Below are positions 2,189 through 36,897 of a stretch of 36,897 nucleotides of DNA, piece after piece (positions within the stretch are counted from its first letter, which is position 1; each line of letters begins with the position of its first letter). The stretch is from IMG/VR virus record IMGVR_UViG_3300014508_000004, positions 1 through 36,897 of that record. One strand, 5' to 3'. The DNA is from a virus (taxonomy: Duplodnaviria > Caudoviricetes). The notes under the pieces were generated by a model. That model was not told where the DNA came from. It saw only the letters and a program-made list of their open reading frames with translations, and ran no database searches. The position numbers and the translations under genes are program-made.

Positions 2189-2572
2189 TTATTTAAAGTT
2201 AAAGCCAAGTAGGACTAACAGCCCTATAGCTAATGCGCCGACAACCTTAGAAAAGGCACTATCCCAAATAGTATGAAACCTTTTAGATCTTACTATTGTG
2301 TCGTGTGCATCATTCCATTTTGCATTGTTGCCGATATTATACATTTCTTGTTTTGTATTTATTTCTTGCTGTTGCTTATCTTTTAAAACTCTTTCACGCT
2401 CAGTAGTCACAAGCTCTCTAACACTTACAGTTAATTCTTTTACTGTTTCATTAGTTGCTTTTACTGTCTCGCTATTTGCACGAACTGAATCACTGATTGA
2501 CTCGTTACTAGTTACCAATGCTTTATTACTATCTAGCAATGCATCAAGCATTTGCTGGTTCATGTCATTCAT
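2189..2572 (-). CDS. Coiled-coil protein with C-terminal transmembrane helix (holin/antiholin-like candidate)
   Basis: Heptad-like N-region and hydrophobic tail VVGALAIGLLVLLGF; function is inference. Confidence 0.5.
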   Translation of the reverse strand: MNDMNQQMLDALLDSNKALVTSNESISDSVRANSETVKATNETVKELTVSVRELVTTERERVLKDKQQQEINTKQEMYNIGNNAKWNDAHDTIVRSKRFHTIWDSAFSKVVGALAIGLLVLLGFNFK

Positions 2573-2575
2573 AGG

Positions 2576-3112
2576 TCAGGTTTGTTTGATTGTCTTTCCG
2601 CTATTATACCAACAAAACAACATATAATCACTATTGAGCGCGATACGACCAACAGAATTAAAAAAGTTGCGTATATCGTTTTGAATTCTTCCGATAGATA
2701 CAAATGAACTAATAAAGATAATATGAGCGCATGTAAAAATATACTCGATATTTTTATAAAGAATTGTTTGATACCCTTCATAACTCTCAGTAGCTCCGTA
2801 CTTATGTGCGTCATAGATAAAATAAAGAGCTATTGAAAATATTACTACACAAGCGCTTTTGCTTTTTAATGTATTTAATGTTGTAAAAACATAAGAGTAC
2901 ATAATACATTCAATTGCGAAAAGTTGCCACTCAAGCAAAGGATCGAATATAGATAGCTGGTAAAGCATCTCTGATAAAAGGTAGGCCAGCAATAATACTG
3001 GCCTATTAATAATTAATGATAAAACGACGTAAGCAATCAATAAACTATTTACGTTTTGTTCCGCCGCCACGTTTACGCTTTGAAGTTGCCATAAGCTTAA
3101 TAACTCAATCAT
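2576..3112 (-). CDS. Multi-pass membrane protein
   Basis: 178 aa with several hydrophobic segments; AAGGA RBS. Confidence 0.6.
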   Translation of the reverse strand: MIELLSLWQLQSVNVAAEQNVNSLLIAYVVLSLIINRPVLLLAYLLSEMLYQLSIFDPLLEWQLFAIECIMYSYVFTTLNTLKSKSACVVIFSIALYFIYDAHKYGATESYEGYQTILYKNIEYIFTCAHIIFISSFVSIGRIQNDIRNFFNSVGRIALNSDYMLFCWYNSGKTIKQT

Positions 3113-3138
3113 GATAAGGTTCCTTATTGTAACAAGTA

Positions 3139-3549
3139 TTACTCACCTATTCTTTCTTTGTGATATTTAATTAACTCGTTAAATCCTTTTAGCATATCAA
3201 CGTAATCAGCCTTATACATTTTTTTCATGTTCTTTTTTGTAGCTATCATGTTATCAACGAAGTCCTTCCCGTACATATCAATCATGAATAACGTATATTC
3301 TTGAGAAGCTGTACCAAACTTCATGCCAAAACTATTGCAGCCTTTGCATTGTGGGTGCACGTTCTCAACTTCTAAACTCCAGTAAGACGAATGGCCTTTA
3401 GCTATAAAATGACCTCCATCACCGTTTTTATAATGAAACTTTTCACCACACGATGCACAAGTACAATACCCGTTATCGTCTGCCCCTGCTACTCTTGATA
3501 ATAACTGTATCGCCAGTAAACATTTAGATCTTGGAGTTGCCTTAGCCAT
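3139..3549 (-). CDS. ninG: NinG/Rap-like recombination endonuclease
   Basis: CASC...DGGHFI...NVHPQCKGCN motif typical of the lambda NinG family. Confidence 0.85.
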   Translation of the reverse strand: MAKATPRSKCLLAIQLLSRVAGADDNGYCTCASCGEKFHYKNGDGGHFIAKGHSSYWSLEVENVHPQCKGCNSFGMKFGTASQEYTLFMIDMYGKDFVDNMIATKKNMKKMYKADYVDMLKGFNELIKYHKERIGE

Positions 3550-3623
3550 TACTCACCACCCTTATTTCGAGGGATCCAGCGCTTCTTTTGTTTCTGCTTT
3601 GTCTTTTTGTTATTTAGCATCAT

Positions 3624-3818
3624 CTAATCCCCTATCTTTTTATCAATGATAACAGCGAAGCACAATCCAACTGCAAAAAACCACACGAACAAAGTAACAA
3701 CCCCAGGAACAACAAACCATTCTCCGCTATCAATAAATATATTCCCAACCCAAAAACAAAAGAATAAATTTAATAGTAAAATCACTACCATTAATGCGCC
3801 AAATAAAATACTTTTCAT
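3624..3818 (-). CDS. Small two-TM membrane protein
   Basis: 64 aa, two hydrophobic stretches. Confidence 0.55.
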   Translation of the reverse strand: MKSILFGALMVVILLLNLFFCFWVGNIFIDSGEWFVVPGVVTLFVWFFAVGLCFAVIIDKKIGD

Positions 3819-3820
3819 AA

Positions 3821-3964
3821 TTACTTATCCTTACACTTATCACAAATAAATACAGGGCGATTAAATTCATCGTATCTCGCTCTGTATGCTGTTTGACCTG
3901 ACATGAATATATATCCACATTTACAGGACTTGTTACCGTCTTTAGAAACTTTCTGAATATTCAT
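3821..3964 (-). CDS. Small putative zinc-finger protein (47 aa)
   Basis: Not in the ORF track. GAGG RBS; MNIQKVSKDGNKSCKCGYIF...FICDKCKDK with CxC and CxxC. Confidence 0.6.
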   Translation of the reverse strand: MNIQKVSKDGNKSCKCGYIFMSGQTAYRARYDEFNRPVFICDKCKDK

Positions 3965-4043
3965 AATAACCTCTTTTTTAAGTATAAGTATCATTAGAAG
4001 CGTTAGTCATGGATGTAGAGACTAAGCTATCTTATCAATTAAA

Positions 4044-4151
4044 CAATACATACAAGTATCAACTAGCATTTCATATCCTTATTGGCTGACCAAACCATAT
4101 AACCATGACAAAACGTTGTTTATTCGCGCTTCTAGACGTTAGTATGTATTG
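4044..4151 (-). ncRNA. Candidate structured RNA domain 3
   Basis: 10-bp closing inverted repeat 4044-4053/4142-4151 with an internal hairpin; no convincing ORF. Confidence 0.35.
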
Positions 4152-4228
4152 AGTTATTCAATATTTGCTAATTATAGTTTAGCTAACTGCGGATTTGTTA
4201 CGATGATCCGAATTAAATCGGCAGTGTT

Positions 4229-4397
4229 AATCTGTATTGTTGAATTAACCTGTAACTGGAACCACCCAATAAGCACCTACGAGGTCAGCGCTCCGATACT
4301 ATATTAACGAGCTTTTAACTCTGGCTTAATAATTCTCGTTTATTACATCTAAAAGGTAATCACTCCGATTAGATTGGTTAACTCAACAATACAGACT
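4229..4397 (-). ncRNA. Candidate structured RNA domain 2
   Basis: ~22-bp closing stem (4229-4250/4376-4397) whose deviations are G-U pairs on the minus strand; encloses three hairpins. Confidence 0.55.
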
Positions 4398-4493
4398 AGA
4401 GGATGCTTTGAAAGGGGTTGCGCGTGGTTGTCAGATTCACATTTAACAGCTACTAGATTAGCTGACCAGTAATTATTGTTACTCTTTACGCAC

Positions 4494-4620
4494 AAAAAAA
4501 GGGTACTTAGATCATGTAACCTTCGTTGATGAAGGGGTGAAATCTGATAGAAAAACCCACCAAAGATCACATGTCTAAATACCCTTTACCAAATTTCTTT
4601 CAAGCAGTCATCACACTGCA
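4494..4620 (-). ncRNA. C4/CI-like antisense RNA candidate with upstream target sites
   Basis: Closing stem 4498-4519/4567-4587, two internal hairpins, 3' U-run; loop regions complementary to leader sequences at 4588-4597 and 4608-4613. Confidence 0.55.
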
Positions 4621-4626
4621 ATACTT

Positions 4627-4654
4627 ATTTTACACTAACCCTATTAACTTTCAA
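4627..4654 (-). promoter_or_regulatory. Sigma70-like promoter driving the non-coding RNA region
   Basis: TTGAAA-16 nt-TAAAAT immediately after the ninB stop. Confidence 0.55.
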
Positions 4655-4656
4655 GT

Positions 4657-5055
4657 TTATTCCTCTTGCTTATCTAATAATTGTTTATATTCACAGTTAT
4701 CAGGGATAGTTATTAAATAACCCCTGTCCATACAATACCTTTCAACCTTGTTTAAATAAAAGTGCATCTCACCTAAATCTAGCTTTTTTGTTGATTTAAT
4801 AGAAACGTGCTTATTAATAACTTTTTCAGGGCAATAATATTTTTTGAATATCTCGTGCCATATCTCAGGGTCCTCACTTACATTTTGTTGTTTAGATATT
4901 TCACCTAACCATTTCCAGTAAAGAGAGTTTTGATCATTACTTCTTTTCTCTCTCCACTGAACTATTGTTACACGATACGCCTTGGTTAAATCCAGCTTCC
5001 ACAACTCAGATATAAATAAACCGATTGAATTAGCTGTTAACCTGAAGTTTTTCAT
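4657..5055 (-). CDS. ninB: NinB/YbcN-like recombination protein
   Basis: KRSNDQNSLYWKWLGEI and STKKLDLGEMHFYL motifs. Confidence 0.8.
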   Translation of the reverse strand: MKNFRLTANSIGLFISELWKLDLTKAYRVTIVQWREKRSNDQNSLYWKWLGEISKQQNVSEDPEIWHEIFKKYYCPEKVINKHVSIKSTKKLDLGEMHFYLNKVERYCMDRGYLITIPDNCEYKQLLDKQEE

Positions 5056-5360
5056 TTTCTCGAACGCTTAACTAGTGAGATAGAGTTTTTAATATTAGAC
5101 TCGGTCATAAAAAATTTATCAGCCAAGTCTTTAGTTGATATATTCAAGCATTTATCTATATGTAATTCAGCAAGCATAATTGTTGAACGCTTATGTTTCG
5201 CTTTTAAATTATCTCTGTTTTTATTGGCTATTGCTGCTGTAGCTCTAAACTTTTCACACTTTGCCGATAGCTCGCTATTCTTTTTTGCCAGTTCGCTATT
5301 CTTTTTTATTAGTGAATCTATTTTGCTTTGCTGGTTATGATACTGCTTTATCGTGTCCAT
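5052..5360 (-). CDS. Hypothetical protein, coiled coil plus possible C-terminal HTH
   Basis: KKNSEL duplication; STKDLADKFFMTESNIK is HTH-like. Confidence 0.5.
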   Translation of the reverse strand: MDTIKQYHNQQSKIDSLIKKNSELAKKNSELSAKCEKFRATAAIANKNRDNLKAKHKRSTIMLAELHIDKCLNISTKDLADKFFMTESNIKNSISLVKRSRK

Positions 5361-5578
5361 TATACACCCGCTACTTTTGATAAGTGATATACAGAGCCGC
5401 TTGGTATGCCGTTATCTCTGCCAGCTTTAGCCTTTGCCTTTCCATTTCTAATATCACGAACAAAGTTTTCAACATCTTCTAGTTTGTAAGTTGTGTATGG
5501 CTGTATCTTGTGCTTTTTTGCTGGTGGAGTTCCTTTTAGCTCCAGTCGCCAATCTCTATACATCGCTGTTAAATTCAT
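5360..5578 (-). CDS. Small basic protein, possible HTH
   Basis: 72 aa, KAGRDNGIPSGSVY; coupled stop/start. Confidence 0.5.
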   Translation of the reverse strand: MNLTAMYRDWRLELKGTPPAKKHKIQPYTTYKLEDVENFVRDIRNGKAKAKAGRDNGIPSGSVYHLSKVAGV

Positions 5579-5691
5579 AATATAAACCTTATCGCTTGTG
5601 GGTAGTAAGTTGTTATCACGGCCAATGATATAGCCGTAATTGTTAGATAAATATGCAACCTTGTTATAAGACGATCAATAGACTTAGACAT
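5575..5691 (-). CDS. Small membrane peptide (38 aa)
   Basis: Not in the track. MSKSIDRLITRLHIYLTITAISLAVITTYYPQAIRFIL; ATGA overlap with next gene. Confidence 0.4.
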   Translation of the reverse strand: MSKSIDRLITRLHIYLTITAISLAVITTYYPQAIRFIL

Positions 5692-5786
5692 AAGCAAAGC
5701 GCTCCAATTAATATTGTAATAACACCTTTAGTTATAAAGTGGTTAAGCCTGTCGTGCTTTAATCTTACATCGTGCTTATTTAACAT
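5664..5786 (-). CDS. Small membrane peptide (40 aa)
   Basis: Not in the track. AAGGA RBS; MLNKHDVRLKHDRLNHFITKGVITILIGALCLCLSLLIVL. Confidence 0.45.
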   Translation of the reverse strand: MLNKHDVRLKHDRLNHFITKGVITILIGALCLCLSLLIVL

Positions 5787-5832
5787 GGTTACATATCCTT
5801 ATTAAGACGACTTCCTTGTCATGTTTGGTTGA

Positions 5833-6201
5833 TTAAAAAGCTGGACCGTTATTTTGTCCATTGTTCAAACCAGGGTTTTGGTTGTATTGCTGGTGATGGT
5901 TATTTTGCTGTTGGCTGTTGTTTTGTTGTGGTGCTTGCTTAAATCCGCTCTGTTGGTTGTTGTTTTGCTGCTGATTATCATCTTCAAATATTGAAACCAT
6001 TAACATATCACGCTGCTGACCTCCTGACTTTGCCGCTAATGAGTTTTGCTTGATTAATACGCCAGCTAATGAAACGCTTGGATCTAACAGCATGTATTCA
6101 CCGTTATCATTACTAAGCATTACGCCTAACTTTGTATACTCGCCTTTAGTTTGACCGTCTTTTTGATACTCGCCTGTTTTTGCTACAATACGTTTTGCCA
6201 T
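5833..6201 (-). CDS. Putative single-stranded DNA-binding protein
   Basis: Small beta-rich N-domain, Q/N-rich linker, C-terminal PAF; located in the recombination module. Confidence 0.55.
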   Translation of the reverse strand: MAKRIVAKTGEYQKDGQTKGEYTKLGVMLSNDNGEYMLLDPSVSLAGVLIKQNSLAAKSGGQQRDMLMVSIFEDDNQQQNNNQQSGFKQAPQQNNSQQQNNHHQQYNQNPGLNNGQNNGPAF

Positions 6202-6205
6202 TTTT

Positions 6206-6631
6206 CTATTCTCCGGTTGGTTGTTGGTTGTTTTCTAATGGTATTGGGTGCACTTGAAAATGTTGTTTAACACCTCTTCTTATTGATAATGATATCGTTG
6301 CCACGCTTGGTATGTGAGATACAGCGTTTACACGAATGCCGCCTATATTTTTTTGCTTTCCAAAGCTTACTGATTGATCAACAAATAGATTCATCCATTT
6401 ATCAGCCCATTGGCTACCATCAATACCCCACAACTTAATAAGTATACGACGAACTGTTAGGCATGGTTTAAATGGCTTACCTTCACAACCATAATAATAT
6501 ATATGAACTGGCTGCTGAGGGTCTTTAGTAAGATTTACGCCTTCAACTTGCACAAGTTTATCGCCTGATATAAAATCATCAGCGTTTAATTGATCAGACT
6601 TTGCTTTTATTGTTCCAGATAAATCAAGCAT
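6206..6631 (-). CDS. Hypothetical protein of the recombination module
   Basis: 141 aa between exonuclease and putative SSB; KSDQLNADD...GGIRV. Confidence 0.6.
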   Translation of the reverse strand: MLDLSGTIKAKSDQLNADDFISGDKLVQVEGVNLTKDPQQPVHIYYYGCEGKPFKPCLTVRRILIKLWGIDGSQWADKWMNLFVDQSVSFGKQKNIGGIRVNAVSHIPSVATISLSIRRGVKQHFQVHPIPLENNQQPTGE

Positions 6632-7496
6632 TGTTAACGTCCTCGAAAGTCACTTCAATATCATCTTCAATAACAAAATCATTATCACGACCGACAAAGT
6701 TAAATGTTTCTGTGTGAACCCAATCATTGCCACTTTTGCATCGACTGAACTCTGAAATATTTCCTCTATGTCTATCCCAAAAACCTAAGTCGATAAGTTC
6801 CTGTCTTGATATTTGAAATACTGCTACTGGGTAGCGACCAAGCTCAACGCTGTTTTGAATGACAAGAAACACAAAGCTATCAATCTCAGTTTTGTAATGC
6901 TGCTCTAAAACGTCAGTGTAGAAGCTTGCGCCATGACCGTAATTAAACTTATACAATGGGTTTATCCATTCTTTATCGCTGCGCCAATCGTCAATACTAG
7001 CCGTTGTTTTAACATCTATAACTATACCTGCGGATTCAACAGCGTCTTTATCAGGTCGGCATTTTAACTCTATACCTGTTTCTTTATCTTTAACGAATAC
7101 AGATGATTCACAATCACCAACTAAATCAAGCAAAGACTTAGCTGAAGGGTGACAAAATACAGATTTAGCCATTAAGTTAACTTGGTCGTATTCATCTTTA
7201 GTTAATACAACTTTGTTTACATTTTCTTTTTGCTCTGCTTCAAACCCTTTAGCTGTTCGCCCTTTGAATTCAGAAACAACAATGTGATCTTTGTATTTTT
7301 CTGGCTCAAGTATTGCGCAATGTAAAGCCGTTCCAATATCAGTTGTTTTCGACTTAGCTCCGTTTCTTGGCGCGCTCTTTGACCAAACAAAATCACCCGG
7401 ATTCTTTTCAATCATTTGTGCGTCACTATTTGCTAACCCATCGGCAGCTCTATAAATAACATCGTTTAAAAAATGCTTTCCGTTATATTTACTCAC
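6624..7496 (-). CDS. Exonuclease VIII / RecE-like PD-(D/E)XK nuclease (DUF3799-like)
   Basis: GTALHCAILEP, KCRPD and VIDVKTT motifs; GTG start with AAGGAG RBS. Confidence 0.88.
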   Translation of the reverse strand: MSKYNGKHFLNDVIYRAADGLANSDAQMIEKNPGDFVWSKSAPRNGAKSKTTDIGTALHCAILEPEKYKDHIVVSEFKGRTAKGFEAEQKENVNKVVLTKDEYDQVNLMAKSVFCHPSAKSLLDLVGDCESSVFVKDKETGIELKCRPDKDAVESAGIVIDVKTTASIDDWRSDKEWINPLYKFNYGHGASFYTDVLEQHYKTEIDSFVFLVIQNSVELGRYPVAVFQISRQELIDLGFWDRHRGNISEFSRCKSGNDWVHTETFNFVGRDNDFVIEDDIEVTFEDVNNA

Positions 7497-7653
7497 CGTA
7501 CTTCTCCTTTAACATTTCTAACGACTCAATACTTGAATGAATCGAACCTTTAACCTGTGCGATAGTTTTATAACCTTCTGCGTCAATCTCTGCTAGTAAG
7601 TCATTTAACACTTGAAGCTTTGCGTTTATATGTGTTGATGCAATCACAATCAT
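7489..7653 (-). CDS. Hypothetical protein (54 aa)
   Basis: Not in the track. AGGAG RBS; MIVIASTHINAKLQVLNDLLAEIDAEG... Confidence 0.55.
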   Translation of the reverse strand: MIVIASTHINAKLQVLNDLLAEIDAEGYKTIAQVKGSIHSSIESLEMLKEKYGE

Positions 7654-9004: not shown

Positions 9005-9035
9005 CAAGGTAATAGATTTTATTGTAGATATAATT

Positions 9036-9059
9036 AGCCGCTGAGATGCGGCTTTTTTT
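9036..9059 (+). terminator. Rho-independent terminator
   Basis: AGCCGC-tgagat-GCGGCT followed by T-run, between convergent genes. Confidence 0.85.
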
Positions 9060-34086: not shown

Positions 34087-34275
34087 ATGCAAAAAACAAT
34101 AAAACTAATCAAGTCCACTGATTTCAGAAAGAATATGTCAGCCTCTATGGAAGAGCTAAACAAGACATCTGAAGCTATTTGTATATTGTCTCCCTATGGT
34201 CACGGGGTGTTAATTACTAAAGCGCAGTACGACAAAATGATAGATTCAATTAACGAGCTGGAGAATAAACAATGA
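34087..34275 (+). CDS. Phd/YefM-family antitoxin-like protein
   Basis: IKSTDFRKNM...AICI...GVLITKAQYDKM follows the Phd/YefM N-terminal pattern. Confidence 0.7.
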   Translation: MQKTIKLIKSTDFRKNMSASMEELNKTSEAICILSPYGHGVLITKAQYDKMIDSINELENKQ

Positions 34276-36779: not shown

Positions 36780-36897
36780 TTAACTAGCTGTGAATAATGT
36801 TGCTTGAACATCGACTGTAAATGTTTCTGTATCAAGTAGTGTTACGGGTGAGCCTCTATCAAAGTAGCTTACTGTTAATCCACCTGCAGGAGTTGAA
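36780..36897 (-). CDS. 3' end of the join-spanning structural gene
   Basis: In-frame continuation of the ORF starting at 398; stop TAA at 36782-36780. Confidence 0.75.
   Translation of the reverse strand, partial: STPAGGLTVSYFDRGSPVTLLDTETFTVDVQATLFTAS
36800..36897. repeat. 98-bp terminal direct repeat, right copy
   Basis: Identical to 2-99. Confidence 0.95.

Follow-up and report, generated by a model that had tools for sequence, protein, structure and literature searches.

A C4/CI-like antisense leader ahead of a variable RNA cassette in marine phages: a candidate feedback attenuator

The window analysed here is the whole 36,897-nt stretch of a siphovirus record, in which terminase, portal, capsid, tail, DnaB and recombination genes were recognized with PHROGs. 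On its minus strand, a 660-nt gap extends from a ninB-like gene (5055-4657) to the small ORFs preceding ninG. The start of this gap is occupied by an RNA element, which a sequence-only reading had described as a C4/CI-like antisense switch with target sites in P1-like order. The locus raises the question of whether the element is an immunity switch of the P1/P4 kind and what it would control. The gap folds with a z of -8.4, none of 20 shuffles being as good. The lack of a recognisable integrase or antirepressor, also proposed earlier, was borne out: the tyrosine integrase PF00589 was found in none of six genomes (the window and five cultured carrier phages), and no icd/kil/ant-like gene appeared among 59 window ORFs compared with PHROGs and 28 compared with Pfam.

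Homologs and anatomy of the leader

Homologs were collected by BLAST of cultured phages and by pattern scans of viral, genome and metagenome contigs, yielding 35 distinct modules of the window type, six of type A2 and seven of type A3. The window-type set comprises 16 sequences aligned first, 17 parsed later, and L095 and L097, which were seen and left unparsed; the automatic parser used for the held-out sequences dropped L031, L035, L095 and L097. Pattern matches were inspected by eye and those lacking the module set aside (L014, L017-L019, L021; L051, L053, L060, L064), as were 10 of 19 in one scan and 13 of 15 GTDB matches in another. Named carriers include the Pseudoalteromonas phages HS2, BS5, Pq0, HS5 and H105/1 and the Vibrio phages 1.085.O, 1.054.O and 1.131.O, while a plasmid search returned a single, chance match. 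The cassette is missing in the close relatives L001 (ninB 92% identical) and L010, where ninB joins the next ORF directly, and it is therefore insertable. Among the 12 loci recovered by a ninB search, it was found adjoining or nearby in L006 only.

The leader and its upstream flank consist of the following features:

4657-5055, minus strand: ninB-like gene, upstream flank of the RNA element (PHROG 72, E 1e-31)
4627-4654, minus strand: sigma70-type promoter TTGAAA-16-TAAAAT (10/12 match)
4604-4619, minus strand: leader hairpin with a 4-bp stem and the 8-nt loop b (4615-4608), shaped like the b hairpin of c4-a1b1
4597-4604, minus strand: segment c, partner of c' past the tRNA-like insert (minimum free energy fold of longer transcripts)
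4587-4597, minus strand: site a, directly abutting the long stem (a:a' covariation)
4498-4587, minus strand: long closing stem P1, enclosing a' and b' (z -7.65, 0 of 200 shuffles)
4549-4539, minus strand: a'
4532-4527, minus strand: b'
4494-4500, minus strand: U7 run after the stem, terminator-like
4408-4414, minus strand: c', partner of segment c

The promoter, leader hairpin, site a, long stem holding a' and b', and U-run, all proposed from the letters alone, were found in place on the minus strand. The promoter (4654-4627) is the best of 10 promoter-like sites between 3400 and 5500; shuffled sequence contains 8.8 such sites, so that the match alone is weak. A -10-like hexamer lies 4-12 nt ahead of the leader in 22 of 31 homologs. 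The stem of the leader hairpin is 100% paired in the homologs, with two-sided changes at two of its four pairs, and the lower stem of P1 is 99.4% paired. At least five U residues follow the stem in 28 of 31 homologs and are absent in three, and a simple scan for short-loop terminators did not call the long-looped stem.

In the window, a:a' amounts to 11 bp (-11.4 kcal/mol) and b:b' to 6 bp. The long-range c:c' pairing (cognate -8.7 vs -7.2 kcal/mol) had its own partner as the best one in just 5 of 28 cases, since c is mostly conserved. Regarding the interior of the stem, the three-way junction suggested earlier is one of two conserved folds: its b' hairpin carries two-sided changes at three of five pairs. 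The other fold, that of minimum free energy, extends the stem and places b' in a bulge on the 3' side; the five extension pairs of this fold show one-sided changes only.

The 5' strand of P1 also carries AGGG-N9-AUG-UGA, which brings in an alternative that we consider unlikely, namely translation-coupled attenuation. A ribosome on AGG(G/A)-N9-AUG in this strand would block the terminator, and binding of a'/b' at site a would block its loading, a scheme closer to the silencing of icd by C4. The b' of C4 is described as occluding ribosome sites (PMC5320573). A start codon follows AGG(G/A) by 7-12 nt in all 31 homologs, 16 of them with a start-stop; in L061 and L081, where the stem has changed in a compensatory manner, it persists as TTG, and the SD-like sequence adjoins site a. 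However, CATG was demanded by the search patterns for about two thirds of the set and the start triplet sits in a conserved stem, while the length of the ORF is unconserved (1-39 codons) and the A2 and most A3 variants lack the AGG(G/A)-start.

Covariation of the two-part pairing code

The pairings of upstream site a with a' and of leader loop b with b' exceed chance, because both covary across homologs. In the first set (n=16), the cognate a:a' energy was -10.9 vs -4.7 kcal/mol, with the own partner best in 11 of 16 homologs, and the respective values for b:b' were -7.4 vs -2.8 kcal/mol and 15 of 16; none of 100000 permutations reached the cognate value. The held-out set (n=17), found with patterns that excluded a and b, gave own-best partners in 16 of 17 (a:a') and 15 of 17 (b:b'), with 0 of 50000 permutations, counts which are in both sets inflated by related sequences. 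With wrongly placed alignment columns that cut site a short, the cognate was best in only 2 of 16 (a:a') and 5 of 16 (b:b'). The covariation called for by the sequence-only reading was therefore recovered in the first and again in the held-out set for both pairings.

The b:b' helix shows two-sided changes at five of six pairs, with 93.7% of cells paired, and is common to all three architectures. Both pairings are kept in all six A2 modules, in which b' precedes a' and the two share one apical loop about 30 bp from site a; the seven A3 modules all keep b:b' and none keeps a:a'. By eye, a fourth leader type was seen in Vibrio phage K30 (L027:2290-2400): its long stem lacks the U-run, and the loop region of this stem is complementary to a 12-nt 5' segment.

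Site a is distinct in 30 of 31 homologs, and its identity between homologs is 53%, against 83% for the stem. In 63 pairs of homologs the 20-nt stem strand is identical; one of these pairs shares a and 11 share b, and this contrast between a variable site a and a conserved stem is not inflated by kinship. The a and b codes were also seen to shuffle independently, the same a' occurring with a different b and the same b with a different a (L061 vs L081; L020, L081, L108).

The loci L054/HS5 and L093, which lack the U-run, differ by a compensatory a:a' change, and pairing is therefore kept without the terminator tail. This observation favours a reading of the locus as a fixed or oligomeric RNA structure, to which we accord a minor but real chance. 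It would also agree with the long-range c:c' pairing, which encloses the stem and slot 1 of the cassette described below, with the folding of the entire gap, and with modules B and C travelling alongside the element. On the other hand, formation of an 11-bp a:a' helix would require threading when a stem of 21-27 bp closes the loop around it, and the A2 partners, in their distant apical loop, would hardly reach site a in cis. Furthermore, modules are exchanged freely among the architectures, A1, A2 and A3 being combined with several B and C types, and the b loop is a known antisense-target motif.

The RNA cassette and the search for targets

Beyond the U-run, the transcript would continue into a series of further RNAs, as the sequence-only reading had anticipated; they comprise tRNAs or tRNA-like inserts, a second slot and modules B and C:

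4416-4493, minus strand: slot 1, cloverleaf-like element with an acceptor-like 7-bp stem plus A-ACC (fold z -1.79)
4228-4398, minus strand: slot 2, 23-bp stem around a variable multi-hairpin insert (z -6.83)
4155-4225, minus strand: module B, two conserved overlapping hairpins (z -3.29)
3990-4139, minus strand: module C, conserved structured RNA whose outer stem ends UCUAAUGA (28-sequence alignment)
3139-3549, minus strand: ninG/Rap-like gene, downstream in the window phage only (PHROG 171, Pfam PF05766)

Slot 1 is closed by the acceptor-like 7-bp stem plus A in 19 of 25 cases (L082 being doubtful), and its contents are distinct in all 31 homologs. In L024, L048 and L070, Rfam-grade tRNAs start in slot 1; as these true tRNAs begin right after the U-run, read-through must occur. 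The stem of slot 2 recurs with other inserts in L015, L059 and L110-L114, and slot 2 is a second variable RNA slot, which RNase III may cut. More broadly, a conserved stem of 20-25 bp was seen around inserts that measure 40-130 nt and are unrelated to one another, some of them containing T-loop-like hairpins (window 4398-4228; L015, L058, L059, L110-L114). Module B has no complementarity to its own a' or b'; the stretch with which it closes in L023 and L024 is similar to the 3' end of some c4-a1b1 rows. Module C presents two-sided changes at 10 of 19 predicted pairs in 28 sequences, its single-sequence z being only -0.17. It has no Rfam match and also occurs behind unrelated leaders, e.g., in Vibrio K-series phages (L027), and alone in L067. 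Elsewhere, its place is taken by at least two further kinds of 3' module (L031, L093; L043, L092, L098). Readings of modules B and C as ribozymes, riboswitches or CRISPR repeats had no Rfam support and were set aside.

With respect to expression, L056, a stretch identical to phage HS2, was present in 19 of 24 listed RNA runs, all in contig form, four runs having single contigs that span it; such contigs reveal neither where a transcript starts or ends nor its level. The promoter region of the HS2-type cassette (L056:1026-1044) recurs at two further places in the same genome.

Module C is followed by a ribosome site and ATG in 13 of 29 cases and by a new promoter-like element in 11 of 29; in the window phage, the first ORF comes directly after it. 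The downstream genes vary by phage (methyltransferases, HNH nuclease, phosphoesterase, hypotheticals) and often lie near head genes. This variety, together with the new promoters, suggests that the regulated output is chiefly RNA. Control of the ninG operon, put forward as the point of the switch, is thus not general, given also that the cassette is absent from L001 and L010. We found no description of the cassette in the literature, where the alignment archives of PMC10690425 and the supplements of PMC5737381 and PMC2864571 (text) may hold it as an anonymous motif.

A P1-like order of sites (b1 a1 a' b' b2 a2) had been proposed, with the downstream complement GUGAAUCUGA at 4440-4431 as second target. 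The sequence is present on the minus strand as a 10-nt complement of a' with one bulge, and falls inside the T-arm-like hairpin of the tRNA-like cloverleaf. Its energy of -8.3 kcal/mol ranks 12th of 16 when a' is laid on the downstream DNA of other phages. A homolog-specific downstream target was found in none of 16 homologs over 600 nt each, own regions being no better than foreign ones, and 17629 (a') and 16225 (b') of 20000 permutations reached the cognate mean. The site was rejected as a target, being at chance level and without conservation in homologs, and neither a2 nor b2 was found in these 16 regions or in five genomes. Also rejected was the 73-aa ORF at 4570-4349 as an analogue of icd/orf45, its frame not being conserved.

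We therefore regard as very improbable a classical P1/P4 immunity region, in which a downstream a2/b2 target would control ninG and the late genes. The one-bulge complement and the position of the window's first ORF behind module C would speak for it; the chance level of the match, the missing icd/kil/ant-like ORF, the unconserved 73-aa frame and the close relatives without a cassette speak against it.

The released RNA might instead act mainly on other molecules, a possibility that we hold to be quite unlikely: it could exert superinfection control over co-infecting relatives that share its a/b code, or target mRNAs of host or phage. The diversity of site a beside a conserved stem would fit specificity groups like those of P1/P7 heteroimmunity (PMC5320573). 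Against this, a joint b+a scan of five genomes put the leader first, or tied after a trivial opposite strand, in three of them, and gave only background elsewhere in the five genomes and chance level elsewhere in the window, so that no joint target stood out. Moreover, the six genomes lack an integrase, and of 15 GTDB pattern matches only two ~39-kb metagenome-bin contigs carry module C; there would therefore be no lysogen to protect.

Kinship with C4/CI and a proposed mechanism

Family membership was addressed with Rfam covariance models. At the gathering threshold, the window gave no C4 or c4-2 matches, and when the regions 2500-7500 and 3960-4680 were compared with all 4227 Rfam families there was no C4/c4-2 match at E<=10, RF01695 giving 0 candidates. 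The C4/c4-2 models had no match in 20 related loci either, and scans of the window and 25 related loci returned tRNAs and chance matches only. Similarly, isrK (RF01394) had no match at the locus at E<=10 or in five two-hairpin loci, and a 14.5-bit isrK match at 9014-9058 was rejected as a plain terminator. The Rfam comparison suggested in the sequence-only reading therefore yielded no C4, c4-2 or isrK match at the locus; of its C4/CI-like switch, the logic of the upstream sites and the likeness of the b hairpin to c4-a1b1 stood, and membership in the C4, c4-2 or isrK families did not.

In supplement 5 of PMC2864571, the c4-a1b1 motif ends in a 4-bp hairpin with 8-9-nt loops, and 80 alignment rows with, by our own count, 25 distinct loops were available for comparison. 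Six of 16 distinct leader loops proved identical to loops in these rows, where ~0.2 would be expected under a constrained loop pattern (rough Poisson 2e-7); the window's own b loop matches none of the 25. The first hairpin of c4-a1b1 (GUC...GAU) was found in 5 of 31 homologs (L096, L099, L103, L108, L111; three of the five folded) and is absent in the window. The likeness of the loops may reflect descent, or convergence on fast-kissing loops. As in the c4-a1b1, P4 seqA and IsrK leaders, a 4-bp stem with an 8-nt loop lies just past the promoter and the partner of the loop is a segment on the 3' side of the antisense domain; in contrast to them, the window and most homologs lack the first hairpin and have AT-rich stems.

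In the C4 alignment, too, the b loop pairs with a 3' junction segment, as b does with b' in the cassette; the rows with this pairing are those that we take to be P1 and P4. With C4 (P1/P7), CI (P4) and RF01695, the cassette shares a long closing stem, a variable a' loop of ~10 nt and b' on the 3' side, as well as upstream a and b sites that covary with a' and b' in a phage-specific code. It differs from C4/CI in lacking the tetraloop stem, having only an a' hairpin and a b' bulge or hairpin; in its site a, which abuts the stem, whereas that of C4/CI lies 70-150 nt upstream; in the absence of a downstream a2/b2 or seqC and of icd/kil/ant; and in an a'/b' order that swaps between variants. In addition, its phages have no integrase, its payload consists of tRNA-like and other RNAs, and its RNase P site is predicted 3', at the next tRNA, and not at the 5' end of the RNA. 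Taken together, sequence comparison points to an element that resembles the upstream half of C4/CI while standing outside those Rfam families, and the cassette RNA is likely related, in a stripped-down form, to the P1/P4 antisense immunity switch.

GOLLD and ROOL are large phage-borne RNAs near tRNAs, several hundred nt long and modular, with tRNA inserts in variable regions. The cassette is like them in size, modularity, tRNA inserts and carriage by phages, and unlike them in having no Rfam match, an internal terminator-like stem and an antisense-type leader.

Accounts of the known systems describe CI RNA as terminating transcription in trans by pairing with seqA and seqC (PMC4825925), and C4 as a three-stem RNA processed by RNase P, in which four changed nucleotides restrict cross-reaction between P1 and P7 (PMC5320573). 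According to PMC3632133, the role of the IsrK/seqA upstream sites is still unclear.

By analogy with these systems, we propose, with about even confidence, that the element could be a minimal C4/CI-type feedback attenuator, in which cis pairing would lead to read-through and the finished RNA would impose termination in trans. In a new transcript, b:b' and a:a' would form while the long stem still lacks its 3' strand, and would tie the 5' strand of the stem into a closed loop; the terminator would be delayed and the polymerase would read through. Host RNase P would then cut where the tRNA or tRNA-like element begins, directly behind the U-run, and release an RNA of ~125 nt. As the finished RNA accumulates, its exposed a' and b' would bind b and a of new leaders in trans; cis pairing would fail, the stem would close and transcription would stop, as with P4 CI acting via seqA. 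The direction and timing of the switch are modelled on P4. Such an attenuator would set the output of the downstream tRNA-like and small-RNA cassette, and the hypervariable a/b code would make the feedback phage-specific.

In nested equilibrium folding at the emergence of a', 1.0 a:a' pairs were expected in the window and a mean of 6.8 over 31 homologs, and every full-length RNA had 0 a:a' pairs. Since a:a' is not favoured by nested folding in the window, read-through would need a kinetic trap beyond the model of the program. The three of 31 homologs without a U-run, the A3 modules without a:a' and the silence of the terminator scan are also counted against the attenuator.

A broader reading, which we offer as a tentative idea, more doubtful than the attenuator itself, is that of an RNA-only, protein-free negative-feedback timer, reduced from P1/P4 immunity and re-used in lytic marine phages. 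A hypervariable code in two parts would keep the control private to each phage, and the timer would meter an operon whose small RNAs, carried on tRNA-like scaffolds, evolve fast and may be decoys or anti-defence RNAs.

In P1/P4, downstream targets, Rho and overlapping genes complicate the picture at the upstream a1/b1 (seqA) sites; the cassette offers only the b-hairpin motif with its own antisense loops and a terminator-like stem, within ~125 nt. About 30 natural code variants, including those of the cultured phages HS2, BS5, Pq0, HS5, H105/1, Vibrio 1.085.O and 1.054.O, make the role of the upstream sites directly testable and put natural orthogonal RNA switches on offer. Our results also point towards an unannotated RNA operon of marine phages, in which tRNA-like inserts are combined with conserved RNAs.

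Finally, some observations concern the remainder of the window. Its ends (1-100 and 36800-36897) overlap by ~90 nt. A complete circular assembly is therefore probable for this record, despite its classification as linear and 92% complete, and the nin operon would in that case continue into terS. A second hairpin shaped like the b hairpin, with the loop UGUAAAAG, lies at 36762-36747 on the minus strand; the loop has no match to the cassette b'. It stands just ahead of the small terminase gene, and similar hairpins are found in HS2 (14071) and BS5 (47). Among small ORFs in the interval between terminase and portal, a plus-strand ORF of 62 aa (34087-34275) has a sub-threshold match to a Phd/YefM antitoxin (E 5e-5).
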